A stretch of 64,000 nucleotides of DNA from a virus (IMGVR_UViG_3300006201_000014:6784-70783), one strand, 5' to 3'. Positions 1 through 38,621 are shown, numbered from the stretch's first letter. The notes: generated by a model not told the origin, from the letters alone. Made by a program: numbers and translations.

Positions 1-405
1 GCCAGCACAAATAAAGCAGAAGAGTGGAGAAGATATGTTAAAGACTTTTTTGAGAAAAACACTGATGATTATAGGGTTATCAATCCAACTGATTATTATC
101 AATATGGCAAGAATTATCATAAAACAGATAAAGAAGTTTTTAGATTTGATCTACGAAAAGTTAGTAATTCAGACATAGTTTTAGTTAATTTAAATGATAT
201 TAGAGAATCCATTGGGAGTTGTATAGAAGTTTATGAAGCGTATAAAAATAATATTCCTGTAGTTGGATTTTTAGATGATGAGTTGCCTGTAGAAAAAATA
301 ATTAAATTGATTCATCCGTGGATTTATTGTTGTGTGGATAGAATAGAAACCGGAAAAGATTCTTTAAATAAAGCACTTAACTACATAATAGATTATTACG
401 ATTAA
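1..405 (+). CDS. Partial (5'-truncated) nucleoside 2-deoxyribosyltransferase-like protein
   Basis: Frame 1 is open from base 1 to TAA at 403-405; the motifs INP..YY, DL..V..SDIVLVN, SIG..IEVYEAY resemble the NDT-like family; phage nucleotide-metabolism context. Confidence 0.55.
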   Translation, partial: ASTNKAEEWRRYVKDFFEKNTDDYRVINPTDYYQYGKNYHKTDKEVFRFDLRKVSNSDIVLVNLNDIRESIGSCIEVYEAYKNNIPVVGFLDDELPVEKIIKLIHPWIYCCVDRIETGKDSLNKALNYIIDYYD

Positions 406-466
406 GTTTTTGTAAATTAAAAAATGAATAAAAAGTATTAAATAGTATTAAAAAGGATAAAAAACT

Positions 467-613
467 ATGGAAATGATTAAAAACGAATATAAGTATAACA
501 TGAATTTCAAACGATATGTTAATGAATTTTGTAAGAGTAAAAAATGTAGTGTTGATGAAGCTTTACAGAATGATCAAGTTAAGAATATGTTTTGGCGATA
601 CACAGAGGTGTAG
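467..613 (+). CDS. Small hypothetical protein (48 aa, MEMIKNEYKYN...RYTEV)
   Basis: ATG at 467 after AAGGA; packed between neighbouring genes; below the ORF-track length cutoff. Confidence 0.5.
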   Translation: MEMIKNEYKYNMNFKRYVNEFCKSKKCSVDEALQNDQVKNMFWRYTEV

Positions 614-618
614 AAACA

Positions 619-849
619 ATGTTAATAAAACTTAATACAATTGATAATGTGAAAGAATTCGTGAACATATGTAATAAATACGATGCAGATATTGACGTAA
701 AACAGAACAAATTTACAGTAGATGGAAAGAGTATTTTAGGGATCTTCAGCTTAAATCTTATGGATCAGTTGGATGTTTACATATTGACACAGGATGAAAG
801 AGTTATCCAAGATTTTAGGCAGAAAATTTCAAAATGGGGAGTCTGTTAA
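619..849 (+). CDS. HPr-family phosphocarrier-like protein lacking the His15 equivalent
   Basis: ATG at 619 after GAGGTG; the motif VDGKSILG matches the HPr Ser46 loop; no GLHARP motif. Confidence 0.75.
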   Translation: MLIKLNTIDNVKEFVNICNKYDADIDVKQNKFTVDGKSILGIFSLNLMDQLDVYILTQDERVIQDFRQKISKWGVC

Positions 850-885
850 ATGCCTGTTTCAAGGGGCGAGAAGGGAGCCTGATAA

Positions 886-990
886 ATGAAAATTAGTTTA
901 TTGGATGGAGTTTTTGAATTTGATTTTGATTGGAAAGCAGTCGTAGGTATTGGGATCATAATTTTAGGATGTGCTTTATTAAAGATGTGA
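886..990 (+). CDS. Small membrane peptide (34 aa)
   Basis: ATG at 886 after AAGGGAG; hydrophobic C-terminus VVGIGIIILGCALL; stop abuts the nrdD SD. Confidence 0.4.
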   Translation: MKISLLDGVFEFDFDWKAVVGIGIIILGCALLKM

Positions 991-1004
991 GGAGGAACTA
1001 TTTA

Positions 1005-3073
1005 TTGCAGATAATTAAAAAAGACGGAACATTAGAACAATATGATGAACAAAAGATAATCAATGCTTGTAATAAGGCTGCAAGAAGAGCAATGGTTGAA
1101 TTATCTGATTCTGACTATCAAATCATTTGTAATGCTGTATGGGATAAACTGGTGGAAAATGATTTAGAAGATACAGAAATTTATGAAATGCACAATATTG
1201 TAGAAGCAGTGTTGGAGGAACATTATCCTATAGTTGCGAAAATGTATAAAGAATATAGAAATTATAAAAAAGACTTTGTACATATGATGGACAAGGTGTA
1301 TGAGAGAAGTCAGGCGATCAGATATATAGGAGATAAAAGTAATGCAAACACTGACTCTGCGCTAGTTGCAACAAAAAGGAGTCTTATCTATAACGAACTA
1401 AATGGAGAATTATATAAAAAGTTTTTCCTTACATTAAATGAGAAACAAGCAATGAAAGACGGATATATTTACATTCATGATAGAAGTGCAAGGCTCGATA
1501 CAATAAACTGTGATCTTATGCGTGTGGGAAAGATTATGCAAGGCGGATTTGAGATGGGAAATGTGTGGTATAACGAACCAAATTCACTTGATACGGCATT
1601 TGATGTTATGGGTGATATTATTATTTCAACAGCAGCACAACAATATGGTGGTTTTACAGTCCCAGAGGTAGACAAGATTCTTGCTCCGTATGCAGAAAAA
1701 TCCTATTGGAAATATAGAAAAGAATATGCAGATGTATGTGAATATATTGAAAAAGATAATGAAACTGTCCTTACTAATACTTCCAGTGCTGAAGAATGGG
1801 TAATGAAAAAAATTCAGCGTGATTTTGAACAGGGATGGCAAGGAATTGAATATAAGCTGAATACGGTTGGTTCCAGTCGAGGCGATTATCCCTTCGTTAC
1901 AATGACTATTGGATTGGCAACAGATAAATTTGGTAAGATGGCAGCTATTACCTTGCTGAATGTACATAAAGAAGGCCAGGGAAAGAAAGGATTTAAGCGT
2001 CCTGTACTATTTCCTAAGATTGTGTTCTTATATGATAAGAATTTGCATGGTGATGGTAGTGACAAATACCCGAGTGCAGATGTTTTTAATGCAGGCATAG
2101 AGTGTAGTAGTAAGACAATGTATCCTGATTGGTTGTCATTGACAGGTAATGGGTATGTGCCTGAAATGTATAAGAAATATGGCAGAGTGGTTAGTCCGAT
2201 GGGCTGTAGAGCTTTTTTATCGCCCTGGTATGAGAAGGGGGGTATGCATCCAGCAGACGAGAATGATAAACCGATATTCGAAGGAAGATGTAATTTAGGT
2301 GTTGTTTCATTACATTTACCTATGATATTGGCGAAAGCAAGACAAGAATCAAAAGATTTTTATGAAGTCTTAGAATATTATCTTGAACTAATCCGAGAAC
2401 TACATAAACGCACATATGACTATATTGGTGAACTTAGAGCAAGTGTAAATCCAGTGGCTTTTTGTGAAGGTGGATTATATGGTGGTCATTTAAAGCCAGA
2501 AGATAAGATTAAGTCAATTCTTCCACCAATGACTATGAGTTATGGGATTACGGCACTTAATGAATTGCAGAGATTATATAATGGTAAATCCATTCGTGAA
2601 GATGGAGAGTTTGCATTAGAAGTAATGCAGTATATCCAAAGATATATAGATAGGATCAAAGAAGAAGATAAGATTTTATATGCAATCTACGGTACGCCAG
2701 CAGAAAGCCTTTGTGGTTTGCAGATTGAACAGTTCCGCAAAATATATGGAATCATTGAAAATGTGTCAGATAAGCCTTATGTAAGCAATAGTTTCCATTG
2801 TCATGTATCTGAACAAATGTCTCCTATTGAAAAACAAGATAAAGAAGAAAGATTCTGGGGATATTTCAATGGTGGGAAGATTCAGTATTGCCGTTACAAT
2901 CTGGGATATAACATAGAAGCAATTAAAACATTAGTTCTCAGAGCAATGAAGAAAGGTTTCTATGAGGGTGTAAATCTTGCAATGTGTTATTGCGAGGATT
3001 GCGGTTATCAGCAAGTAGAAATGGATGTATGCCCTAAATGTGGAAGTGAGAAGATAACAAAGATTGACAGGAT
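1005..3073 (+). CDS. nrdD: Class III anaerobic ribonucleoside-triphosphate reductase, exon 1
   Basis: TTG start at 1005 after GGAGGA; N-terminal ATP cone (IIKKDG); MGCRAFL and GRCNLG motifs; CxxC...CxxC Zn site; reading ends IDR-AT at the splice site. Confidence 0.95.
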
Positions 3074-3371
3074 AGAAAATCCGTTTGTCCTGTATAAATA
3101 GGTTAAATTGCGGAGAAGTCCTTAGAGCCTCAAGAAGCTACAACGTAACTGGAAACGGTAAGCGTGAATGCGGAACAGCGAAAGCACATACCATAAAAAT
3201 TCTTGGGATTGGATTATCGGGGATGGAAGTTCCTCAGACGCAGCGAAACTCCTTAACGGATATGCCGAAGGAGAACGTTCAGAGACTATAATCCTACATA
3301 GATTGTATAGTCCAAACCGTCTGTGAAGGCAGAGTTAAAGTATTATGAAAATAACGGTATAAAAGATATTG
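3074..3371 (+). ncRNA. Group I intron (298 nt, no internal homing ORF)
   Basis: Exon ends in U and intron ends in G; IGS GTCCTGT (3087-3093) pairs with exon ACAGGAT with a U-G wobble; P10 CCGTTT (3081-3086) pairs with GAACGG; core elements AAATTGCGG, CGCAGC, GTTCAGAGACTA, TATAGTCC. Confidence 0.92.
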
Positions 3372-3462
3372 GAACGGTTATCTTGGGTTTACTAGAGTGC
3401 ACGGAGAAACTAGATATAATGATGCGAAGAATTCTGAGATTAAAGACAGAATTAGCATGTAG
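3372..3462 (+). CDS. nrdD: nrdD exon 2 carrying the glycyl-radical motif
   Basis: The spliced junction AT|G restores DR-MNGYLGFTRVHGETRYNDAKNSEIKDRISM*. Confidence 0.92.
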
Positions 3463-3476
3463 ATGGAGGTACTTAT

Positions 3477-4109
3477 ACGACAAAAGATTTTAGAGAGTTT
3501 ATAGGTAAAAAGTATTTAACAAATGAAGGATATGGAATTTTAATTATTGATTATATTGATAGGCACCATGTATTAATTAAGTTTGAAGATAGATCAGAGT
3601 TACAAATTTGGTGTACTCTACAAAATATTAAAAATGGGCAAATAAAAAATCCATATCACAAAACGGTATTTGGTTTAGGATATTATGGAAATGGAAAATA
3701 CACAGCGAGAATTAATAATATTAAAACAGAAGAATATGTTAAATGGTTTAGCATGTTTAACCGTTGCTACAATGAAAAATATCATGAGAAGCAACCTACA
3801 TATATTGGATGTAGTGTATCTGAAGAATTTTGGAATTTTCAAAATTTTGCAGAGTGGTATAACGAAAAGAAATATGTATGCAATTATCCATTAGAATTAG
3901 ATAAGGATTTATTGTATGAAGGAAATAAAATCTATTCCCCAAGCAGATGCTGTTTATTGCCAAAGGAAATAAATTGTGGAATTAATTATCATCGGCATGA
4001 CATTAAGTTTATGAATAAATTATATCGCAAATACAAAAATGAACTTCCTTATTATCTAAGAATGGAATTGTATAAACTGACTTTAGGAAATAAGGAGGAT
4101 GTTGTATAA
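3477..4109 (+). CDS. Free-standing HNH-type (His-Me finger) homing-endonuclease-like protein; start codon is ACG
   Basis: Frame is open from 3456; GGAGGT (3465-3470) lies 6 nt before ACG at 3477; W..M..RCY, PTY.GC.V..F..F..W, LDKD...GNK.YSP..C motifs are typical of phage HNH proteins. Confidence 0.65.
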   Translation, partial: TTKDFREFIGKKYLTNEGYGILIIDYIDRHHVLIKFEDRSELQIWCTLQNIKNGQIKNPYHKTVFGLGYYGNGKYTARINNIKTEEYVKWFSMFNRCYNEKYHEKQPTYIGCSVSEEFWNFQNFAEWYNEKKYVCNYPLELDKDLLYEGNKIYSPSRCCLLPKEINCGINYHRHDIKFMNKLYRKYKNELPYYLRMELYKLTLGNKEDVV

Positions 4110-4748
4110 ATGAATTATCATAATATTACATATCCAGATATGAATAACGGAAGTGGTTTGAGAGTCGTGTTATGGCTCTCAGGCTGTTCTCATAAGTGTA
4201 AAGGTTGTCAGAACCCTCAGACTTGGGATGCTAATAGTGGTATTCCATTCGATGAATCAGCAAAAGAAGAACTATTCAGAGAATTAGACAAAGATTATAT
4301 TTCGGGGCTAACATTAACAGGAGGTGATCCGCTTTTTGAAAGTAATCTTGATGGTGTACTGGATTTGGTTACTGAAGTAAACAAACGATATAACACGGCA
4401 CAAAATATAGTCCAAAATCAAGATAAAAACCACAATATATTGAATGAAAATGCCAATGAATTCCGTCCTTTAAGTCCACAAAAATCTATCTGGCTATATA
4501 CTGGATTCTATTGGGAAGAAATATTTGAACCATCATTTACAGAGCAATCACAAGAATGGATAGAACAATATTTAAAACGATGTGAAATCAGTAAACAAAT
4601 CATTTATCAGTGTAATGTATTAATAGACGGGAGATATGTAGATTCAGAGAGAGATATCACACTCCCATACAGAGGCAGCAAAAACCAAAGATTGATCGAC
4701 ATTCAGCAATCATTACAAGAAGGAGAAATAGTATTATGGCAAGCATAA
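4110..4748 (+). CDS. nrdG: Anaerobic RNR activating enzyme (radical SAM)
   Basis: GCSHKCKGC (CxxxCxxC), GLTLTGGDP, RGSKNQR; adjacent to nrdD. Confidence 0.95.
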   Translation: MNYHNITYPDMNNGSGLRVVLWLSGCSHKCKGCQNPQTWDANSGIPFDESAKEELFRELDKDYISGLTLTGGDPLFESNLDGVLDLVTEVNKRYNTAQNIVQNQDKNHNILNENANEFRPLSPQKSIWLYTGFYWEEIFEPSFTEQSQEWIEQYLKRCEISKQIIYQCNVLIDGRYVDSERDITLPYRGSKNQRLIDIQQSLQEGEIVLWQA

Positions 4749-8864: not shown

Positions 8865-9460
8865 TTCATTATCATGGGAGCGTCCGGCAGCGGAAAAACA
8901 TATCTGTCCAATGCGCTTGGCGTGGCGGCATGCAGGAATTACCTGACTGTCAGATATGTGCGGATCCCAGTTCTCCTGAACGAACTTGCTTTAGCCCGTG
9001 GAGAAGGCATATACCTGAAATTGATTAAAGCTTATCAGAAGGTAAGTTTGCTGATTATTGATGAGTTCCTTCTTACACTGCTCACGAATGAGAGCAGGCC
9101 AACGATCTGCTGGAGGTCATTGAGCCGAGGACAGGGCGCGGTTCCATCATCTTCTGTACCCAATTCGAGCCGGACGGCTGGAATGAACTGGGCAAGGTAT
9201 ATGATCCGGCAAGAGAGTGGATCAGTACCATAGATATCCTTTCAAATCTGGATATGCCATACTATGACAGCCTGGCGTACCAGGAGTACGTCCGGCTCTA
9301 TTATGATGGTGGCGACTCGATGTCCTTTAAGGGATTTATTGATTCCATGGTGAAGCTTGCAAAAGATATTAATGACGAACAGTACTAAGTTATCAATGAC
9401 CTCCTTATAATCGAAAGCACTCCCTTCCTGAAGAATCGCACCGGATTCCCGGAAGGGGTG
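8865..9460 (+). pseudogene. istB: IS21 IstB ATPase fragment (frameshifted, 5'-truncated), fused to unrelated sequence and followed by an IS-end-like tract
   Basis: GASGSGKTY Walker A and LLIIDE Walker B; frameshift after LLTNE; higher GC than flanks. Confidence 0.7.
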
Positions 9461-11404: not shown

Positions 11405-12427
11405 ATGATGAAAACCGTTAATATTGATAATGTTATAAGAACTATTATGGACAGTATAACAGCAAATCTTGGTGAACAGTTTACCTTATCTGATTTAAAG
11501 CAAATCTTATATATGACCTTATCCAAATATAATATTAGTGAAGAGTGTACGGCTTTGTCCGTTGATATAGATTGTACAGAGCAGTATGTCCAAGATTATT
11601 TACTCAATATGAAATTAAATGGTTGCACTGAAAAAAGCATTAATGCTTATAGGAACGATATTAAAAATATGCTTATTTTTACAGATAAACCTGTTACAGA
11701 AATTACATACCATGATTTAAGGAATTGGTTAGGGTATGGAAAAATAGTAAGAAAGTGGAAAGATCGCACATATAATACTAAATTGGTAGAAATGCGTGGA
11801 TTTTTTTCGTGGTTATACGAAGAAGATTTACTCCCAAACAATCCTGCTAAAAAATTGAAGGAAACCAAAGTAGAACATCGAATTGGTTTAACCCTTCAAC
11901 CAGAAGAAAGAGAAGAAATCCGATGCCAGTGTAAAAACGAACGAGAACTCGCTATTTGTGATTTTTTATACAGTAGTGGGGTCAGGATTTCGGAATTATG
12001 TTCTTTAAATATTACAGATATTAGTTTTACAAAAAAATCTGCTATTGTGTATGGCAAAGGCAGAAAAGAGCGTGAAATATATTTTAATGCTCAAACTAAA
12101 GTTCATCTTATTAGGTATTTAAAAGAACGAACCGATGATAATCCAGCGTTGTTTGTGAGCGAAAGAAAACCGTATAATCGAGTCACATCTGGATCTATTC
12201 GAACATTACTGGGGAAAATTAAGAACCGAAATGATGCTACAAAGGGACTAAAATTAACGCCTCATGTTTTTAGACGAACAGTAGGAACTGACATGATAAA
12301 TAAGGGCGCACCGATTGAATTAGTAGCCGAGAAACTCGGACATAAAAATATTAGCACCACGAAGGACTGTTATTGTTCCATTGCGAGAGAAACGGTAAGA
12401 CAAGCGAATGATAAATTCGTGTCCTAA
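11405..12427 (+). CDS. XerD-like tyrosine recombinase (putative tail-fibre invertase)
   Basis: SGVRISE, HVFRRT, LGH...Y motifs; no arm-binding domain; lies between the two cassette pairs. Confidence 0.88.
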   Translation: MMKTVNIDNVIRTIMDSITANLGEQFTLSDLKQILYMTLSKYNISEECTALSVDIDCTEQYVQDYLLNMKLNGCTEKSINAYRNDIKNMLIFTDKPVTEITYHDLRNWLGYGKIVRKWKDRTYNTKLVEMRGFFSWLYEEDLLPNNPAKKLKETKVEHRIGLTLQPEEREEIRCQCKNERELAICDFLYSSGVRISELCSLNITDISFTKKSAIVYGKGRKEREIYFNAQTKVHLIRYLKERTDDNPALFVSERKPYNRVTSGSIRTLLGKIKNRNDATKGLKLTPHVFRRTVGTDMINKGAPIELVAEKLGHKNISTTKDCYCSIARETVRQANDKFVS

Positions 12428-29564: not shown

Positions 29565-30803
29565 TTATGAGTAGTATGTTTCGACAAAATATGGTACAAT
29601 ATATTCTATAAAAATTTGCTCATATACATAAATGATTTTTTCTAATGTGGTTATTTCTTGGGCTGTAAGATTGTATGTATCCGCATAAATTTCAAAAACA
29701 CCAGTATCAGGATTCAGATTATTCCTAAATAATGTAGAATTATCAATCCCAATTCCAGCTAACTCAACACGTCTTTCACTATCTAATGTTTTCCAAAATT
29801 CATTTACTGAAGCGGTAAGAGCGTTCATATAGTTCAACTCTGCTTCGTTGTGCATATTACCACCGAAAATGAACTGTCCATTGTCACCTGTCAGAGTAAT
29901 ACCATTTTCAGCTACATCTTGTAACTTACTCATAGCCTCATTGGAAGCATTGATAGTTCCATTTAACTTCTCTGTTGCTTCGTTTGCTTCTTCCACATAG
30001 GTATAAACACCTGCAAAAGCGTCTCCAATATCTTGTGCAATCCTAAAGTTGTTTAAGTCTTCCTCAGTCTGCAATAGTCCTTCTAACTGTTCCCTTGCAG
30101 TAGTACCGTTTTCACCAAGAGAAAGAATGGAATTACCGTTCTCATCAATACCTTTTACCAATCCAGGGAATGAGTCGGCAAGTTGCTCATTAATATCAAG
30201 AAACTCTTCATACTCTTCTGTGGAAAGGGAAAAAGGTTTGTTATCGGACTTGTTTACCCCTTTTGATAATTCGTCATATCTATCCGCTAATTCTGATACT
30301 GTTTTTCTATGATCGGCAAGAGTATCATTCATCTGCTTAAACTCATCAAATAACTTATCGGTACGTTCTCTGGCTCTTTCTACTCTGTGAATATAGTTAT
30401 CAAACACCTTGTAAAGTGCTTGTACCGCAACGGTTACAGCAAGAAAAATTCCTGCATTGAGTGCTGTGTTTAGTAAGGTTGCTTTGATTGCTGCAAATTG
30501 AAATCCGTTTCCAGATTTTTCGAGATAAGCTGACATACCCTCAACAGAAGCGGAAGTATTGTCAATATGCCCTTTTCCGTCATCTAAAGTTTCAAGATAG
30601 GAGCGGAGTCTGGTGTCTGTGATACCGATTGATTTTGAAAGATTATCCCAATCGTATTTGTTTGTTTCTAAATCTAAAAAATCATCAAAAGATTCAATAT
30701 TTTTAAATGCATCAATAATTTCTTTATATGAATCCACATTTACTTTAAGATTATCAAATAATCCACCTAAACCTATGCCATTTTCTTCTGTGTACTGTGC
30801 GAG
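29565..30803 (-). pseudogene. Alternative TMP exon 2, copy 2 (412 codons, truncated)
   Basis: Starts G|CTCGCACAG; divergent first ~100 aa, then identical to exon 2; runs into unrelated sequence and stops. Confidence 0.75.
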
Positions 30804-30877
30804 CAACAACAGATATTATTTACATTGAACTTCCAATTCATTGTAAATAGTGGTATTATTAAAAATATAATTGAATA

Positions 30878-31312
30878 TTGGAGGATTTGAATTTGGAAAC
30901 AGTCTTAAAAATTTGTAAAAAATGTGGAAGATACGCAGGTTCATGTTCGCCAGATTCCAAAATACATGGTGGGAATTGTGGTGGCGAACTTATTGATACT
31001 GGAATATCTCATGATGAATTAATGGTTATTAGAAAGATTTCTTCTGGTAATGATTTTTTAAATGCTATGATTGAGTTGAGAAAAAATGATATTATCGAGT
31101 ACAACCTTAAAATGTCCCAATTTAGAACACAAGTAAATCAACAGAAACAACAGCAGGAGAGTAATGTCCCAAAGTGTCCAACATGCGGCTCAACTAATTT
31201 AAAGAAGATTTCTGGTTTATCTAAAGCAGGATCGGTAGCATTATGGGGAGTGTTTGCTGCTGGTAGAACATCAAAAACATGGCATTGTAATAAATGCGGT
31301 GCTGAATGGTAA
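30878..31312 (+). CDS. Zinc-ribbon protein, paralogue 2
   Basis: CKKC, MIELRKNDIIEYNLKMSQF, CPTCGS...CNKCG.EW. Confidence 0.75.
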   Translation: MEDLNLETVLKICKKCGRYAGSCSPDSKIHGGNCGGELIDTGISHDELMVIRKISSGNDFLNAMIELRKNDIIEYNLKMSQFRTQVNQQKQQQESNVPKCPTCGSTNLKKISGLSKAGSVALWGVFAAGRTSKTWHCNKCGAEW

Positions 31313-31342
31313 TTAAATCATTTAATCACATCCTCGTATTAT

Positions 31343-31560
31343 AAAGTAGTAGTGTTTATAGTCCCTCTCCAAGGACTGTATGCTATACTGTTGGAGATAC
31401 TGTGGATTGGTTCTCACTTCCTACCACTTGATGGTTTACGAAAGGATACAACCACAGTCTCTTTGTATATTTGTTAATCAGTTAGATACCGCATGACGGT
31501 TTATTTAGAACGAGGTTACAATCGCAAGGAGTACCTGTGGCTCTAAACAGTATTAAATAC
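31343..31560 (+). ncRNA. IS110 bridge RNA in the left end
   Basis: Target loop TCACTTCCT (31414) / GAAAGGA (31440) matches the insertion site; donor loop AGTTAG (31480) / ACGAG (31510) matches the circle junction. Confidence 0.75.
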
Positions 31561-31579
31561 ATTGCAAAGGAGATTTCTT

Positions 31580-32755
31580 ATGATCTACGTCGGAATTGAT
31601 GTCGCCAAGGATAAGCATGACTGCTTTATCACTAATTCAGATGGTAAAATATTGTCCAAATCATTTACCATCTCAAACAACCGCGAAGGTTTTGAATCCT
31701 TATTTCACAGAATCGAATCTGTATCAGACGATGTAGCTAATGTAAAAGTAGGACTCGAACCCACCGGACACTACAGTTACAATCTTCTGGGTTTTCTTCT
31801 TGATAAAGGTCTGCCAACCTACGTTATCAATCCGTTGCATACCAATCTTTACAGAAAAAGTCTGAGCCTTAGAAAGACCAAAACGGATAAAGTAGATGCC
31901 CATACGATCGCTTCCATGATCATGTCTGATGTAAACTTAAAGTCCTACTCAGACACATCATATCACAACGAAGAACTAAAGTCACTGACCCGTTACCGTT
32001 TTGATAAGGTAAAGGAACGGGCAAAACTGAAATCTTCTGTTTCAAGACTTGTGTGCATTCTTTTTCCTGAACTGGAGAAACTCGTGCCTACGCTCCATAT
32101 GGCTTCCGTCTATGCTCTCCTGTCGGAGTTCCCTTCTGCTTCGGCAGTTGCTTCCACACATCTGACAAGGCTCTCAAACCTTCTTTCCGAAAGTTCTAAA
32201 GGGCATTACGGAAAAGATACCGCTGTCATCTTCAGAGAGGCGGCAAGAAATTCCATAGGATCACATATGCCTGCAAAGTCTTTGGAACTAAAGCATACCA
32301 TCAGGCTCATTCAGGAACTGACCGCTGAGATCGATGAAATAGAACGTGCCATCACATCCATTATGGATAGCCTTCATTCACCACTCCTCACCATACCTGG
32401 TATCAGTTACCGCATGGGTGCCATGATACTTGCTGAAATCGGAGATTTTAGCCGCTTTAATTCAGCCGATAAGATACTCGCCTATGCCGGAATGTCACCT
32501 TCAACTTATCAATCGGGGCAGCTTAATAACTGTTATTCCCACATGGAGAAACGTGGTTCCAAATACCTCCGATACGCCCTTTACAATGCCACAAAATATG
32601 TTTGCCATTGGGATGAAACATTTGCTGCATATCTTGAAAAGAAACGCTCGGAAGGAAAGCATTACAACGTTGCTTTATCCCATGCCGCCAAGAAACTTGT
32701 GCGGCTGATCTACGCGATGGAAAAATCAGGACAGCCATACAGTAAAGCAACATAA
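31580..32755 (+). CDS. IS110 DEDD transposase/recombinase
   Basis: VGIDVAK, GLEPTG, KTDKVDA, AYAGMSP...QSG motifs; ATG at 31580 after AAGGAG. Confidence 0.93.
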   Translation: MIYVGIDVAKDKHDCFITNSDGKILSKSFTISNNREGFESLFHRIESVSDDVANVKVGLEPTGHYSYNLLGFLLDKGLPTYVINPLHTNLYRKSLSLRKTKTDKVDAHTIASMIMSDVNLKSYSDTSYHNEELKSLTRYRFDKVKERAKLKSSVSRLVCILFPELEKLVPTLHMASVYALLSEFPSASAVASTHLTRLSNLLSESSKGHYGKDTAVIFREAARNSIGSHMPAKSLELKHTIRLIQELTAEIDEIERAITSIMDSLHSPLLTIPGISYRMGAMILAEIGDFSRFNSADKILAYAGMSPSTYQSGQLNNCYSHMEKRGSKYLRYALYNATKYVCHWDETFAAYLEKKRSEGKHYNVALSHAAKKLVRLIYAMEKSGQPYSKAT

Positions 32756-32961
32756 TTCTTTCCGTAAATATCTCCTTTTAGAGTGCCAGAAATGACACTC
32801 TGTTTGTCATGCAGTTTTCAAGGTACAAATATATCTGAAATGCATTTTTGCAATTCATTCAAAAATTTTCATTTTAGGGCTTGACTTTTAATAGTTAGTC
32901 TTTCAAATAATATTTGAGTAAAACCACTCAATAGATAGTACAATACCATTATATTCTCTAT

Positions 32962-33459
32962 TCAGTGGTTTTTATTTATTGTATCATTCATAGACTTGAA
33001 CTCATCAAGCAATTCTGATGTACGTTCTCTTGCTTTTTCTACTCTATGGATGTAGTTATCCAATGCTTTTGCTATACCTTGGATTGCTACGGATGCAACG
33101 AGAAATATTCCTGCATTGAGTGCTGTGTTTAAGAGTGTTGCCTTGATTGCTGCGAAGTTGAATGACTGTCCTGTAGACTGTAAGTATTCGCCTAATCCTT
33201 CTACGGAAGCAGACTGGTTGTTGATTGTACCGTTTCCATCATCAAGTGTCTTAAAGTAGGAGAGGGCAGTTTCGTCACAACCTTCGATTGCTTTGGCTAT
33301 TGCGTCCCAATTTGCTTTGCCATCTTCTAGTTTAAAAATATCCTTATCTAATTTTAGCTTCTTAAAATCATCAATAACATTTTTATAACCATCAATGTCA
33401 ACTTTAATTTTATCAAATATACTACCTAATCCAATACCATTTTCTGTGACTTGTGCGAG
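32962..33459 (-). pseudogene. Alternative TMP exon 2, copy 3 (165 codons, truncated)
   Basis: Starts G|CTCGCACAA; translates LAQVTENGIGLGSIFDKIKVD...FAAIKATLLNTALNAG...; missed by the ORF track. Confidence 0.75.
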
Positions 33460-33559
33460 CGCATCAGAAATAGTATAAAGATTTATTCAATAAATAACTT
33501 CCAATTATTTACTAAATGTAGTAATATAAATTTAAAATAAAGAAGAGAGGGTAATTATT

Positions 33560-34045
33560 ATGGCATTAGAAGCAAGAATATGTCCTAAATGTGGTTCCAA
33601 AGGATTAGTACCCATAGAAGCTGATAAAAATTGTTTTTGTGGTGGAACAGAAATAGTATTCAATGTAACAAAAGACGAATATGTTAAAATGTCTGATAAT
33701 GAAATTGATCAGATGATAAAAGAAATGGATATTCATCCACTCATTAGTGAAGATGATGCTTATTTAATTTACAATGTTACGCATTCTACAGAAATTATTG
33801 ACGCAATGATTGAACTCAAGCAAAAGGATATTATAGAGTATGGTCTGAAATTATCTCAATTTAAGAATCAATTAGAACAAAAACGTCAGATCAATCAGCA
33901 AGAGAAGAGTCAAGTACGCTGTCCGAAATGCGGTTCAACATCTATTACAACAGGAGCAAGAGGAGTGAATCTTACATTTGGATTACTTGGAGCGAGTAAA
34001 ACGGTTAATCGTTGTGGAAAATGTGGGCATACTTGGAAACCATAA
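33560..34045 (+). CDS. Zinc-ribbon protein, paralogue 3
   Basis: CPKC, MIELKQKDIIEYGLKLSQFK, CPKCGS...CGKCGHTW. Confidence 0.8.
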   Translation: MALEARICPKCGSKGLVPIEADKNCFCGGTEIVFNVTKDEYVKMSDNEIDQMIKEMDIHPLISEDDAYLIYNVTHSTEIIDAMIELKQKDIIEYGLKLSQFKNQLEQKRQINQQEKSQVRCPKCGSTSITTGARGVNLTFGLLGASKTVNRCGKCGHTWKP

Positions 34046-34095
34046 TTCTCTTTCTATATAACTATAAAACATATTAAAGAATGGAGATTACAAAA

Positions 34096-34572
34096 ATGAA
34101 AAATAAGATTATAACTATAATGACAATTATATCGTTACTTTTACTGACTGGTTGCGGAAATAATAATAAAATTTCAAGTATAGAGGATGAAGTATATTCA
34201 TATGCAAATGAAATACAAGATAAGTATGGAAAAATTTCTATTGATGTTGTTTATGCCTATTGTGATGGTGAAAAACAACATCTTTTGTTGTATTACTATG
34301 GAATTGGTTCCAATGCAGATGAAATAGGTGATACTTGTGTTCTTTATGAAATACCTAAAGATGGCGAACTTGAAATTTATGATCCACTAGATGATAAAAG
34401 CGATTTATCAGCTCAGTTAATAAATGTTAATATACAAATACAACATGACGAATATAATTCGTACAAAGAGAATGAAAATGAATTAACTTATGAACAATAT
34501 AAAAATTTTGAAAAGGGTTATCTTACAAGTTATTATGCATCAGAAGTTAATGAAAAACTTCATGAAAAATAA
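34096..34572 (+). CDS. Putative lipoprotein
   Basis: Signal peptide with lipobox LLTGC. Confidence 0.7.
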   Translation: MKNKIITIMTIISLLLLTGCGNNNKISSIEDEVYSYANEIQDKYGKISIDVVYAYCDGEKQHLLLYYYGIGSNADEIGDTCVLYEIPKDGELEIYDPLDDKSDLSAQLINVNIQIQHDEYNSYKENENELTYEQYKNFEKGYLTSYYASEVNEKLHEK

Positions 34573-34665
34573 TTTTCACACTGAAATGGTAGCATCTATT
34601 GCTATGTAGTGTGTGTTTAGTAAGAAGATCAATAAAAGTTTTGAGTGTTTGAATTGTAAATATAC

Positions 34666-35796
34666 TTGGTAAGAGAGGAATTTATAAACATGTTTCCAGA
34701 GGAAATAATACAGATATTACAAAAATATCAAACAAATAATATTGGTGAACTCAAATCAATTAACAATAATATTTCTGAAATTGTTAATCAATTAAAATCT
34801 ATTCGTGGAAACTTGTCAAAAGAGTTATCTGAATTAGTTAATAATGATAGTGTTAATGATAAAGAACAAGAACTATTAGATGATACAAAAACACTTCGTA
34901 ATTATATTAATTCTATTTCACAAATTGTATTAAATAATTCACAAGATATAGAAATTTCTGAAGAAATAAGTACATTTAAAGAATTTAAAGATGTTAAGTT
35001 ACATCTTTGTGCGGATAATGTATGTCCGAAATGTGGTTGTAATATGAATCAAACGAAAACTTCATATGGTCAAGTATCTTTGCAAAAGCATCTAGTATCT
35101 AATAAAAAGCTTGATTCATATATGTGTCCTGCATGTCACAGATATTTTGTGACAAAAGATGTTATTAATAGTATAAGAGTAGATAAAACTAATATCAAGT
35201 TGTTAGAAGATTATTACCATGAAATTCCATCATTAGATATCAATAGTGCAATTGTACTAAGTAACACGTTAAAATGTTCTTTTAATCACGATACCAATGA
35301 TATAATTGCTAGAATTCCAGTTTTGAACGAAAATGGTGATGTGTACTATGTAGAAACCACAGCTGCATATTGTTCTGTATGTAATCGTTTCACAATTCTA
35401 AAAGATGAATTTGATAAAATCGGTGATATTGTAACATGTAAAGTTATTGATGAAACTATAAGCTACAAAACTGGTGATCAGACTCAAAACGATGAAATAG
35501 AGAATGACGGTAGTATTCTAAAATACTACGGATACAATGTACAAACTCAGAAAAACATATCTGAACAACAACGCCATATAATTTTATCATCTGTCATTGA
35601 AGCAGGAATTATGAGCAGAAGACATGTAGTTGATATTTTACAAATAAACATAAAAAGGAAATCAACTCGTCCAGACTGTGCATCTGCAATTCAAAAATGG
35701 AATGATGATATTGAATTTGTAAATACATATAAAACAGAAGAATTGCCAAAAGTTATATTTGATAAAATAATCTTGAAATATAAACAGACAAAGTAG
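34666..35796 (+). CDS. Hypothetical protein (coiled coil plus CxxC motifs)
   Basis: ORF track; CPKC, CPAC, CSVC; start may be ATG at 34690. Confidence 0.65.
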   Translation: MVREEFINMFPEEIIQILQKYQTNNIGELKSINNNISEIVNQLKSIRGNLSKELSELVNNDSVNDKEQELLDDTKTLRNYINSISQIVLNNSQDIEISEEISTFKEFKDVKLHLCADNVCPKCGCNMNQTKTSYGQVSLQKHLVSNKKLDSYMCPACHRYFVTKDVINSIRVDKTNIKLLEDYYHEIPSLDINSAIVLSNTLKCSFNHDTNDIIARIPVLNENGDVYYVETTAAYCSVCNRFTILKDEFDKIGDIVTCKVIDETISYKTGDQTQNDEIENDGSILKYYGYNVQTQKNISEQQRHIILSSVIEAGIMSRRHVVDILQINIKRKSTRPDCASAIQKWNDDIEFVNTYKTEELPKVIFDKIILKYKQTK

Positions 35797-35845
35797 CTCA
35801 TTTTCGGATAAAAAATAGAATAGCAGTGGAATATAAAAGACACCG

Positions 35846-36250
35846 TTAGGTGTCTTCTTGTATTTCATCATTAGAGTTTGTAAAATTCATAAATGGAATA
35901 TAAAATGGTTTGAAACCGAGCTGTGATGTCATCAGTGCAATTATTGGCCTTACGTTTGATAAAAGTAATGCTGGCGCATTGATTTTTAACAACTCATTAA
36001 AATTATCTGCTCCATCATTTTTAAATAAGGAATAGGTCTCAACAATCATAAAAAACGGGTATTGGTCATTTCTCTCTCCAATTTTTATTGTTAGAGATAC
36101 CTTTGCTTCTTTATCGTCTTCTATTATTTGTATATCCAAATTTGTAGAAATTGAAAAACCATCAAATTTCTCCTTATCAAAATCTTTATTTTCATTAATT
36201 AAAAACGATGAAATTCGTGGATTTTTAAATTGGAATTTGCTCTTTTTCAT
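35846..36250 (-). CDS. SecB-like chaperone
   Basis: NAPALL...RPIIA.MT...GF.PFYIP..NF C-terminal SecB signature. Confidence 0.8.
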   Translation of the reverse strand: MKKSKFQFKNPRISSFLINENKDFDKEKFDGFSISTNLDIQIIEDDKEAKVSLTIKIGERNDQYPFFMIVETYSLFKNDGADNFNELLKINAPALLLSNVRPIIALMTSQLGFKPFYIPFMNFTNSNDEIQEDT

Positions 36251-36259
36251 TCTGCCCCC

Positions 36260-36856
36260 CTAGGCTGCAATTAATAGTCTGTTATTTGATTTAACATTTA
36301 CATCATTTGGTTTTTCTAACATTTCCGTATCTTGAATTGGATTATATTCTTTGTCAATGAAAAAGTTATCTTCATGATTATTTTTACTAACATTAACAGT
36401 AATTGTATCTAAATAATCAAAATCACATTGAATGTCATATGAAATAATATATGATTTCAAATAATTAATATAATCATCAAAAGTGTCCTTTTCGTCCAAA
36501 TATTGATCTTCACATGGAAGTTCAGTTTCATCAATATCAGAAAAATTCATCATACAGTAATCATAAGTCTTTTTATCAGGACAATAATCAATAATGATAG
36601 TTTTATTCACTGATTTTTTAAAAGCAGAGAGCAAAGTGATTTTATCATTTAATATGTCCAATAAATCATTTACAGGTATTTTAATAGCAATCCAAGACCT
36701 TTTTGCGTCAATAAAATCATCACATATGCATAAAAAGAAATTGTTATAATTGTCTTTACATACAAATATAACTGGTTCTAGCTCATATTCCAACAATACT
36801 TTGTTAATAAATAAGTCCCCAAAATTTGGCACATTTTTAAAATATACATTACTCAT
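36260..36856 (-). CDS. DUF6575-like protein, putative antitoxin with an acidic C-terminal tail
   Basis: LLEYE.EPVIFVCKD...FFLCIC N-terminal pattern; middle gene of a three-gene operon. Confidence 0.55.
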   Translation of the reverse strand: MSNVYFKNVPNFGDLFINKVLLEYELEPVIFVCKDNYNNFFLCICDDFIDAKRSWIAIKIPVNDLLDILNDKITLLSAFKKSVNKTIIIDYCPDKKTYDYCMMNFSDIDETELPCEDQYLDEKDTFDDYINYLKSYIISYDIQCDFDYLDTITVNVSKNNHEDNFFIDKEYNPIQDTEMLEKPNDVNVKSNNRLLIAA

Positions 36857-37313
36857 TTCTATTCACCTCAATATTTATATCGTCCATTATTATAAAATCT
36901 TTAATAATATCCTTAATACAATCCTGATATATCCACCAATCTATATGATTTTTATCTGGATAATTTGGATCACGTTCTTTTGTTTTTTGTGATAAGCCTC
37001 CAATTGTATGTCCAACAATTATACAAGGAGTAGGAAATTGTGAAAAATATTTCTTTTTTATAAGTTTGTAAAGTTGTTTCGGTTTTTTATCTGTTAAAGA
37101 GCATGAAGTTGAAAATGTCATTACATTATCAATGGGATCTTTTATTTCTCTATTTTCCAGTATATATTCATCATAAGAATTTAAAAATGCTATATCATTT
37201 ATTATTCCTCGCTTACAAAATCTATAAACAATACGTTCAGGATTTTCTTTTCCGAATTCATATATTTTGTCAATGATATTATTTGGTATGGATTCTGCCA
37301 ATCTTCTGTACAT
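36849..37313 (-). CDS. Putative ADP-ribosyltransferase-like toxin
   Basis: VYR...STSCS...HIDWW spacing resembles the ART fold; first gene of the operon; promoter TTGTCA-17-TAGAAT at 37372-37344. Confidence 0.5.
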   Translation of the reverse strand: MYRRLAESIPNNIIDKIYEFGKENPERIVYRFCKRGIINDIAFLNSYDEYILENREIKDPIDNVMTFSTSCSLTDKKPKQLYKLIKKKYFSQFPTPCIIVGHTIGGLSQKTKERDPNYPDKNHIDWWIYQDCIKDIIKDFIIMDDINIEVNRNE

Positions 37314-37534
37314 AACTATACCTTCTTCTTAATGTATGAATCCATTCTACCATTATTTACCAATTTTGACAATGAGAACACTTGTTTATGGAATACAAAT
37401 ACCAAACTTCATTTAATATGGAACAGATTCATTATATATCATATAATATGAATAGTCAATAATCAATTCCATTTTATATGGACAAATGTAAATATTTAAT
37501 GTATTATATGAGTATTAACAGATGAGGTGAAAAT

Positions 37535-38269
37535 ATGAGTTTTGGAGAACGATTAAAAGCAGCAAGAGAAGAAAAGGGGTATACTCAATCCAAATTAGCA
37601 GAATTGATTGGGTATGGAAGCACAACTGTATCCGAATATGAAAAGGGCAATAATAAACCAAACCTAGATATGTTTATTAGGCTTTGTAAAATTCTTGACC
37701 AGTCACCAAACTATTTCCTTCAAGATGAAATTATCTTAAAAGAGGAACTATTGAATCCAGAAGACAAAAGAATCCTTGATAGATATAAATCCCTTACTCC
37801 TCATGACAGGGAAATAGTGGATCATGTATTTAGTATGAAGCCGGAAGAACCTACAATAATTTATCGGTTCCCTGTGTATGAACAACAAGCCGCTGCTGGA
37901 GCTGGAAAGTATGGAAGAGAGGGCAAATATCATATGAAGGATTTGCAAATAAACAATCTTTCTAATCAAGCTGTATTTGGTATTGAAATATCCGGTAATA
38001 GTATGGAAAAGAAGAATAACGCTGATTGCGGAATAAAGGATAATGCGACAGTATTATTAAATCCAAACTTTGACGAACTAAATCTTGATGGTAGAATAGT
38101 AGTATTTAAAATTAATTCTACCAATGAGGTTCTATGCAAAAGATATTTTAAAGAAGAAAATGCAATAGGATTTATTTCTGATAATGATGAATGCTCGGAT
38201 AAGGATAAACATTTAGCTACTGGTGAATATACAATCATAGGTGAGGTTGTTAATGTTATAAATCCGTAA
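37535..38269 (+). CDS. CI/LexA-like repressor (HTH-XRE plus S24 autopeptidase)
   Basis: N-terminal HTH; AAAG cleavage motif; GNSM (Ser) and LCKR (Lys) catalytic residues. Confidence 0.9.
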   Translation: MSFGERLKAAREEKGYTQSKLAELIGYGSTTVSEYEKGNNKPNLDMFIRLCKILDQSPNYFLQDEIILKEELLNPEDKRILDRYKSLTPHDREIVDHVFSMKPEEPTIIYRFPVYEQQAAAGAGKYGREGKYHMKDLQINNLSNQAVFGIEISGNSMEKKNNADCGIKDNATVLLNPNFDELNLDGRIVVFKINSTNEVLCKRYFKEENAIGFISDNDECSDKDKHLATGEYTIIGEVVNVINP

Positions 38270-38415
38270 TATCATATGGGCGTATAAATAATAGGAGATT
38301 AGCACTATAAAATATAGATATTACCTATTTTAAGAACTTTATGTATATATGAAACATGGGATTTTCATGAGGCAGATGATTAAGGCACATCTGCATGCCT
38401 CATTTATAAATCAAA

Positions 38416-38585
38416 ATGAAAAAAGATAACTGGTACATACACTTAAGATGTTCCAGTTATCTTTTATACTTCTCATTAACAAAATCCCACTATATAAGAT
38501 ACGATAACGGAATAGCATCTGAGTCTATTCTCTGTCTGAGCTACTGCTTCAACAACACGCCTTACGTGATTATCATTGTATCTAA
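38416..38585 (-). ncRNA. Putative sRNA downstream of the DUF3800 gene
   Basis: TTGACA (38618-13) - 17 nt - TATACT (38595-90); internal stems; 13-bp terminator stem at 38421-38465. Confidence 0.65.
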
Positions 38586-38621
38586 TAGTAGTATATGAGA
38601 ATTTTAACTTATTGTCAAGAT

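Follow-up and report, generated by a model that had tools for sequence, protein, structure and literature searches.

Phage group I introns such as those of T4 (td, nrdB and sunY) and Twort carry an open reading frame (ORF) in a peripheral loop outside the core; their 3′ splice site is set by the terminal G and P10, and they hold a single sense-strand homing-endonuclease gene of ~0.5–1 kb. Here, we describe a group I-type intron in the tape-measure gene of a phage sequence of 64,000 nucleotides (IMGVR_UViG_3300006201_000014:6784-70783; hereafter the window, with positions counted from its first nucleotide), which is a section of a 70.8-kb linear IMG/VR virus record that is 45% complete. Unlike the T4 and Twort introns, this intron has an antisense zinc-ribbon gene as its constant resident, together with up to 18 kb of cargo, and its one donor faces three candidate acceptors.

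Several described systems share part of this layout. The prophages of the Bacillus cereus group carry the tape-measure group I introns TMP-IVS1/2/3 (Tourasse and Kolsto 2008, PMC2504315). These are likewise group I introns in prophage tape-measure genes in which different introns fit one site via P1 and P10, and a homing endonuclease is absent from most of them (PMC2504315). However, the TMP-IVS introns are of ordinary size with one 3′ splice site, whereas the intron in the window measures 10.8–18.4 kb with three acceptor modules, carries defense-like cargo on both strands, a conserved antisense zinc-ribbon gene and a putative loop-loop tether, and is Rfam-negative. The IStrons CdISt1 and BcISt1 resemble the window in having a complete 5′ group I ribozyme that a long non-ribozyme stretch separates from the 3′ splice site, and alternative 3′ splice sites giving variant proteins have been reported for them (Tourasse et al. 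2014, PMC4227781; Mullany et al. 2015, PMC4430133). The spacing in the window is IStron-like: the core ends at ~43880, the last hairpin of the ribozyme piece (K5) lies at 43796, and the acceptors lie 10.3–17.9 kb further on. Unlike IStrons, the intron in the window occupies one conserved site in one gene family and does not appear to transpose, with no IS200/IS605 or IS607 transposase found by Pfam among the 19 intron ORFs scanned (a few short ORFs were outside the scan), and its alternative sites are duplicated modules with paralogous exons.

The closest analog in layout is the group II intron C.te.I1 of Clostridium tetani, in which the D5/6 motif is repeated four times and there are as many alternative 3′ exons; it was shown to undergo alternative splicing in vivo, and it similarly combines one 5′ exon and ribozyme body with tandem 3′-terminal elements that each head a 3′ exon (McNeil et al. 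2014, PMC3919590). Its repeats carry the catalytic domains 5 and 6, whereas the modules in the window carry a tether hairpin and splice-site context only; each of its 3′ exons is a complete and separate gene and all lie within 5 kb, whereas two of the three in the window are truncated paralogs and the span is 18 kb (PMC3919590). A literature search turned up no description of tape-measure introns that carry cargo or of group I introns with stacked acceptors.

An initial annotation of the window had proposed one tape-measure intron with three alternative acceptors and had left two options open, alternative splicing by the phage or relic acceptors from repeated cassette exchange. The splicing framework, with one donor and with acceptors defined by P10 and the terminal G, stood up to our analysis, and relic acceptors fit the comparisons with related phages best; adaptive alternative splicing was left unsupported. 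Our preferred reading, held with moderate confidence, is that the three acceptors are stacked relics of recombination in a giant, cargo-carrying group I-type intron, all of them seemingly splice-competent and only the distal one leading to a full-length product.

The interrupted tape-measure gene

Exon 1 of the tape-measure gene (44256–46220, minus strand; PF10145 PhageMin_Tail, E value 1e-26) encodes 655 aa if read from the ATG at 46220 and 643 aa if read from the one at 46184, upstream of which lies an AAAGGAG ribosome-binding site. Its 3′ end reads ...CAG GGT|TAG at 44256, placing the predicted 5′ splice site after U 44256; read through, the protein ends in ...GAKGQG before a stop, and the relative P0001 ends with GAKGQG too. 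The full-length exon 2 (20242–25887, minus strand) comprises 1881 codons and a stop, with C-terminal choline-binding-type repeats. It lies 18.4 kb downstream of exon 1, lacks a start codon of its own (20245–25887), can be aligned to relatives as far as ~aa 1870, and is the sole 3′ exon giving a complete tape measure. In the uninterrupted homolog P0061 (2989 aa), the end of exon 1 maps to residue ~674 and the start of exon 2 to ~675 without a gap, so removal of the intron would restore a continuous reading frame; P0056 is similarly colinear across the predicted junction. The predicted junctions join the exon 1 end GCAAAAGGGCAGGGT to CTCGCACAAGTCACAG, CTCGCACAGTACACAG or CTTGCACAATATACAG.

We searched bacterial genomes and metagenomes with the acceptor proteins and obtained ten more loci (related loci are given L numbers here), of which six have a compact intron (~1 kb) consisting of the ribozyme, one antisense zinc-ribbon gene and one acceptor. 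The relatives come from Lachnospiraceae metagenome-assembled genomes and gut-type metagenomes, and the phage hosting the interrupted gene is Lachnospiraceae-associated; SPbeta-like tail genes adjoin the tape-measure locus. In seven loci (L012, L013, L015 and L017–L020), the exon 1 alignment is gapped by 0.35–1.9 kb, which suggests more introns elsewhere in tape-measure genes.

A group I-type ribozyme in the 5′ piece

The ribozyme piece of the intron lies at 43796–44255 on the minus strand. To describe it, we used an alignment of seven ribozyme sequences (A3; the window and homologs), in which the 96 pairs are paired in 99% of cells, compared with 31–45% in slid controls, and 21 pairs are compensatory, compared with 9.3 ± 1.8 in shuffles (0/500 shuffles as high). 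P1 (CAGGGU/GCUCUG; guide 44222–44217) has six pairs with a U.G wobble at the splice site and is 100% paired in the seven sequences. It also covaries, with two positions changed on both sides to give CUGGGU/GCUCAG and UUGGGU/GCUCAA in relatives. The P10 guide TTGTGCGAG (44231–44223) forms nine pairs with each of the three exon starts, CTCGCACAA, CTCGCACAG and CTTGCACAA. A perfect 9/9 match had been credited to copy 3; in fact the fully Watson-Crick pairing is that of copy 1 (CTCGCACAA), and copies 2 and 3 carry one G.U each. P10 measures 7–9 bp in relatives, with its guide part immediately 5′ of the P1 part, and a terminal G (omega G) precedes the exon in 14/14 class A acceptors. In the class B introns found at this site, P10 has undergone three compensatory changes, all at exon positions that are synonymous.

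The remaining core helices also covary. P3 (CCUCU/AGAGG, 44110–44106 with 43951–43947) shows a C-G change in L075 and a U.G in L072 and forms a pseudoknot with P7 (43959–43955 with 43911–43907), which is of the covarying GACUA/UAGUC type and reads GGCCA/UGGUC in the window; P8 (43945–43918) and P9 (43900–43882) contain compensatory pairs. A split within P8 had been proposed for this intron, but P3, P7, P8 and P9 all fall inside 44255–43880, placing the catalytic core wholly within the 5′ piece, and no helix of the window ribozyme is broken. A P/Q-like hairpin (44100–44078) is followed by a P6-like hairpin (44077–44055), and P5 would have only ~3 bp. By these predicted helices, the intron is group I-type, fails the Rfam model and has an atypical P4–P6 region. 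The relative L007, whose intron sits at the same codon, has canonical P, Q, R and S elements and reaches 11.2 bits with the Rfam group I model RF00028, against a cutoff of 50 bits.

Two candidate helices were discarded along the way: a P7 at ACUAC/GUAG (44088 region), dropped for the covarying P7 of type GACUA/UAGUC, and an RNAalifold P3-like pairing CUCUG/CAGAG, broken in L075 and dropped for the covarying CCUCU/AGAGG. BLAST of the 5′ piece against the phage collection gave no match, an 18-mer from the ribozyme core scanned in IMG/VR gave one chance match, class A and class C ribozymes aligned without credible homology, and the seven relatives searched against Rfam at gathering score yielded skipping-rope RNAs only. 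Separately, we observed a long-range helix, UUUAACGC/GCGUUAAA (44242–44235 with 43854–43847), which joins the P1 loop to the region after P9.1 and encloses the whole core; it is 94.6% paired in the seven sequences with one compensatory pair and is unusual for group I introns.

Three acceptor modules with paralogous exons

Three minus-strand cassettes of the form AATTGGAAGTT...G|CTYGCACAR had been reported with their terminal G at 33460, 30804 and 25888, and we found all three at these positions, with 24–38 nt between AATTGGAAGTT and G|CTYGCACAR. The motif TTGGAAGTT occurs five times in the window against 1.07 expected, and 0/100 shuffles reach five. Module 1 (33460–33513) consists of a hairpin, K3 (33489–33513, loop UUGGAAG 33504–33498), a linker and the terminal G 33460, and it continues into an exon stem pairing UUUCUG (33470–33465) with CAGAAA (33446–33441) in the exon. 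Module 2 (30804–30845) has its K3 hairpin at 30821–30845 (loop 30836–30830), terminal G 30804 and an exon stem of UCUGU (30813–30809) with ACAGA (30791–30787). Module 3 (25888–25929) has its K3 hairpin at 25905–25929 (loop 25920–25914), terminal G 25888 and an exon stem of AUCUGU (25897–25892) with ACAGAU (25875–25870).

All three acceptors proved to be in frame with exon 1, as had been claimed, and head paralogous LAQ.T..G..LG..FD starts with 68–72% identity over ~170 aa. The open frames after them run for 165, 412 and 1881 codons in copies 1, 2 and 3, and the corresponding introns would measure 10,796, 13,452 and 18,368 nt. The predicted products of 808, 1055 and 2524 aa are correct for the start at ATG 46184, with its upstream ribosome-binding site; from the first ATG at 46220 they would be 820, 1067 and 2536 aa.

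Other details of the earlier model were replaced. TTGGAAG had been read as the 3′ strand of P8; it is instead a hairpin loop whose flanks pair locally with each other. TCTG, taken for P7′, pairs with a CAGA ~12 nt into exon 2 (codons 5–6), a stem that puts the splice site in its loop and occurs in three sequence versions; these stems are individually weak, with shuffle frequencies from 0.002 to 0.99. The copy-specific P8 extensions (CTATTT/AAATAG, CAATG/CATTG and TTTAGT/ACTAAA) are 6-mers that 64–77% of shuffles equal. Scanning IMG/VR with the acceptor pattern gave 44 stretches, none homologous, and aligning the acceptor protein against IMG/VR gave distant matches only.

Beside the acceptors stands a two-zinc-ribbon gene. 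It lies antisense just upstream of the acceptor in almost all interrupted relatives, across ribozyme classes A, B and C (for example, L003 16305–16604, L005 ~11427–11754 and L016 11327–11816), and is the constant resident of these introns; its protein matches only families of unknown function. The promoter consensus of these genes is TTCCAA-17-TAnnAT, often with a TG extension, and the promoter overlaps the acceptor hairpin.

A putative loop-loop tether

The ribozyme piece ends in hairpin K5 (43796–43823, minus strand; stem CAUCAG/UUGAUG, fold z = −3.2), which displays the loop CUUCCAA (43813–43807). The stem covaries (alignment pairs 479/506 and 481/504), and the loop is invariant in 7/7 ribozyme pieces. 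Across 14 acceptors, K3 is a 9-bp hairpin with loop TTGGAAG whose stem is 91.5% paired, compared with 66.6% in shuffles; seven of its nine pairs are compensatory, and the stem differs from copy to copy around the invariant AATTGGAAGTT. In a strand test of the stem, we counted 6 G.U against 3 A.C. The simplest reading is that CUUCCAA of K5 and UUGGAAG of K3 kiss over 7 nt, an interaction that would tether the far 3′ end to the core. The initial annotation had allowed that the motif might be conserved only through its overlap with the −35 box of a divergent promoter; the overlap is real and may explain K3, but a promoter cannot explain CUUCCAA in 7/7 ribozyme pieces.

Unconstrained RNAduplex was uninformative, and in an ungapped-helix matrix of 5′ and 3′ pieces across loci only L016 stood clearly apart, the class A score being 26 where the background ran as high as 24–30. 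We also observed four back-to-back hairpins at 28686–28773, with loops UGUGGAG/UGUGGAA on the plus strand and CUCCACA on the tape-measure strand. No complement to these loops occurs on the tape-measure strand from 20 to 46.3 kb, and the hairpins may be an orphaned tether array brought with the cargo between acceptors 2 and 3 (cargo B).

Taken together, a working mechanism can be proposed. The catalytic core occupies the first ~460 nt after exon 1 in a piece ending in K5, and K5-K3 pairing would return the remote 3′ splice site to the core. Each predicted 3′ site is a small module beside an antisense zinc-ribbon gene, made up of K3, a linker, the exon-pairing stem, the terminal G and the exon start CTYGCACAR. 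The three modules are probably not a designed set but the outcome of repeated recombination with related phages whose cassettes differed.

Proposed recombination history of the stacked acceptors

Each exon 2 fragment runs exactly up to the terminator hairpin of the adjoining antisense gene unit. Fragment 1 (32962–33459, minus strand) has 165 codons and a stop, its homology ending at about codon 160 (...MNDT). At its exact cut lies a long hairpin (32920–32972; dG −23 kcal/mol, z −5.3), the terminator of the antisense unit of the second zinc-ribbon gene (ZnR2), with UUUUAC after it on the tape-measure strand and homologs in L076 and L079. Fragment 2 (29565–30803, minus strand) has 412 codons and a stop, the last ~20 codons being unrelated sequence, and is directly followed by a long hairpin (29492–29545; dG −24.6 kcal/mol, z −4.2) that is homologous to the one after fragment 1 and 77% identical to L079 1992–2091. 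The 864-nt perfect duplication noted earlier is exact (24721–25584 = 29631–30494), whereas the 303/309 nt nearest acceptors 2 and 3 are only 60% identical.

Three relatives place these pieces in context. The closest, L090, has a ribozyme 86% identical to that of the window with the same guide, a single copy-1-type acceptor by a zinc-ribbon gene of the ZnR1 type, and a 12.1-kb intron, followed by a full-length exon (gene called at 1902 aa); fragment 1 is colinear with its exon 2 only down to window 32981. The exon 1 protein of L090 was read on 23 contigs, which came from many samples; in this lineage, giant introns are therefore common in nature. In L076, the order fragment 1, hairpin, ZnR2 and acceptor 2 is the same as in the window at 76–83% identity, acceptor 2 heads a long exon, and a transposon insertion has cost the proximal fragment its own acceptor. 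On the independent contig L079, a copy-3-type acceptor heads a fragment of 111 codons, after which comes a second acceptor. Each acceptor type is a sole acceptor elsewhere (L077, L081, L072 and others). Acceptor counts in relatives, a check that the initial annotation had proposed, gave stacked acceptors in L079 and a single acceptor in 6/6 compact relatives and in L090. No exon 2 fragments were found in the cargo of the seven class B and C loci checked.

The break points vary (codons ~111, ~160 and ~396), and the joined-on sequence always begins at a gene-unit boundary, which fits recombination between related phages with different cassettes and not a designed exon array. We propose that module 1 is the cognate acceptor of the window ribozyme and that its exon was cut at about codon 160 when a unit of ZnR2 and acceptor 2 was joined on. 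The exon of acceptor 2 would then have been cut at about codon 396 when cargo B, the third zinc-ribbon gene (ZnR3) and acceptor 3 arrived, the 864 nt being duplicated in that event. The window also contains an IS110-family insertion sequence (31335–32899, plus strand; PF01548, PF02371), the limits of which were set from uninterrupted sites in L076 (4661/4662) and L079 (target GAAAG^GATGTG). It has the ZnR2 terminator hairpin on one side and the stop codon of ZnR2 on the other, and it is a later, secondary insertion, with L076 and L079 contiguous across the insertion point. No other transposase was found among the intron ORFs scanned.

Acceptors 1 and 2 have kept every recognizable cis-element and so probably act as competitors or decoys at the 3′ splice-site step, from which truncated products of ~808 and ~1055 aa would result. 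The persistence of the stacked layout in L076, together with the intact 1881-codon distal exon, suggests that the phage tolerates the arrangement, and tolerance would require some bypass to acceptor 3.

The intron of L090/L091 (2657–14716) has different cargo, including two GmrSD_N proteins, Peptidase_M78, a LexA-like and a SeqA-like protein, and the L090 cargo contains zinc-ribbon relics at 8901–8993 (95% nucleotide identity to window 31215–31334) and 11844–12077. In L076, three adjacent integrase-like ORFs (by eye) and a small same-strand ORF (234–4174) replace the proximal acceptor and the 5′ part of the fragment.

Points against stacked relics and alternative explanations

Several points weigh against reading the acceptors as stacked, splice-competent relics. 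The splice junctions are predicted from sequence alone. The K5-K3 pairing is invariant and so shows no covariation itself, and UUGGAAG coincides in part with the zinc-ribbon gene's −35 box. The placement of P4–P6 is tentative, with a vestigial P5 and ~95 nt of extra helices between P6 and P7, and the Rfam model RF00028 is silent on the window ribozyme (43400–44400, E ≤ 10, and also at the gathering score). Acceptor 1 is transcribed first and has the best guide match, so it should dominate if competent, in which case the phage might be defective. Persistence in L076 (~76–83% identity) argues for tolerance, yet an exchange of modules could give the same picture as vertical descent. The reading also assumes that transcription proceeds through 18 kb of hairpins and of genes in mixed orientation. 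Finally, dN/dS on the fragments did not distinguish relic from expressed sequence, synonymous sites being saturated.

Four other explanations deserve consideration. One that we regard as unlikely is that the distal acceptor alone is used, with the proximal modules inert or with the 3′ pieces being separate transcripts joined in trans via K5-K3. A functional phage needs a full-length tape measure, a trans-acting arrangement would need a loop-loop tether, and the U-tract hairpin after fragment 1 on the tape-measure strand and the many convergent cargo units make read-through over 18 kb questionable. Set against this, we saw no defect in modules 1 and 2 when comparing them with functional homologs, and the compact 1-kb relatives need no trans-splicing. 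Nor did we find a conserved tape-measure-sense promoter upstream of K3; the conserved TATAcCA box at that place belongs to the antisense zinc-ribbon gene, as its −10 box. A promoter and terminator consensus scan was not informative.

The arrangement might instead be non-functional, representing either a decaying prophage that has ceased to make its tape measure, all splicing going to acceptor 1, or strain variants assembled into a chimera. We consider this quite unlikely, even though the record is linear and 45% complete, carries the IS110 insertion and a perfect 864-nt repeat, and has an acceptor that is first in line with a perfect guide match. Exon 2 has an open frame of 1881 codons that can be aligned with relatives up to its end, the ribozyme is without a broken helix, the junction of fragment 1 and ZnR2 was found independently in L076 and L079, and the junction that follows the 864-nt block consists of unique sequence, which some real molecule must contain.

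It is improbable, in our assessment, that splicing here is adaptive, with the phage making the short isoforms of ~808 and ~1055 aa on purpose, for example as tail-assembly regulators. The break points differ among genomes (~111, ~160 and ~396) and match the ends of neighboring gene units, not domain boundaries; the truncated proteins lack the whole C-terminal part; and the perfect 864-nt repeat and IS110 point to recent accidents. The loss of the proximal acceptor in L076 and the single acceptor in 6/6 compact relatives and L090 also speak against isoforms made by design. Such isoforms would fit with K3, terminal G, P10 and the 3′ splice-site stem being kept in all three modules, with the fragments being open frames each directly followed by a strong hairpin, and with a stacked layout that has persisted in L076 and is seen again in L079; C.te.I1, with its four alternative 3′ splice sites, offers a precedent (PMC3919590). 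Joining of exon 1 to one cassette by DNA recombination (shufflon-like or excision), with the complementary 9-mers and 7-mers as inverted repeats, is very improbable: any RNA helix is a DNA inverted repeat too, but the cassettes are in direct orientation to exon 1, where inversion cannot fuse them, the compact relatives hold the zinc-ribbon gene only and no recombinase, and the P1 U.G wobble and other G.U pairs fit RNA.

Implications of stacked acceptors

Under our preferred reading of stacked relics, a phage group I intron would span 18 kb of sense and antisense genes by means of a portable acceptor consisting of a tether hairpin, a terminal G and P10. An essential structural gene would thereby serve as a storage bay for toxin-antitoxin and defense-like genes, with a turnover in which new cassettes bring an acceptor and an exon start and old ones stay as intact-looking decoys. 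The locus would be a natural test case for how group I introns choose among competing 3′ splice sites, and a counterpart to the alternative splicing of the Clostridium group II intron. A bolder possibility, about which we are doubtful, is that one ribozyme ligates exon 1 to two or three 3′ exons 10.8, 13.5 and 18.4 kb away via the 7-bp kissing tether. If true, this would be the first case in nature of a group I intron splicing alternatively to multiple acceptors, and stacking would be a way to swap cargo islands and the start of exon 2 without losing an essential gene. For annotation, the consequence is that gene calling breaks such tape-measure genes into fragments and reports the truncated exon copies as orphan ORFs.

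Cargo and additional loci

Cargo A (34046–43795, both strands) includes genes with Pfam matches to MazF-like, DUF3800, LexA-like HTH-S24 and DUF6173 proteins, a SecB-like three-gene operon and unknowns. The first zinc-ribbon gene (ZnR1; 33560–34045, plus strand) has a promoter, TTCCAA-17-TAATAT, that overlaps the K3 loop of acceptor 1, and it is 82% identical to the zinc-ribbon gene beside the single acceptor of L090. ZnR2 (30878–31312, plus strand) shares 83% nucleotide identity with the L076 unit. ZnR3 (25966–26388, plus strand; promoter TTCCAA-17-TATAGT with a TG extension) is a mosaic of two L079 zinc-ribbon genes. Cargo B (26389–29491) comprises antisense genes at 26372–27211, 27540–28571 and 28894–29283, along with the hairpins at 28686–28773 and a zinc-ribbon relic (27219–27371, plus strand) that corresponds to the 3′ end of a ZnR1-type gene (67% identity to residues 111–161). 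Among the end types checked, no relative combined terminal repeats with a cargo-laden intron.

Two further loci yielded minor observations. In L080 (732–7711), a copy-1-type acceptor and a 1079-aa exon are followed by a second gene ending like exon 1 (...GAKGAG, GCAGGGT|TAAC), and then by a ribozyme-like stretch, an antisense zinc-ribbon gene and a further open frame, which suggests two intron-bearing tape-measure-like units in a row. In L011 (12018–12204), two tandem skipping-rope RNAs (RF02924; 77 and 60 bits) lie in the cargo of a class B tape-measure intron.

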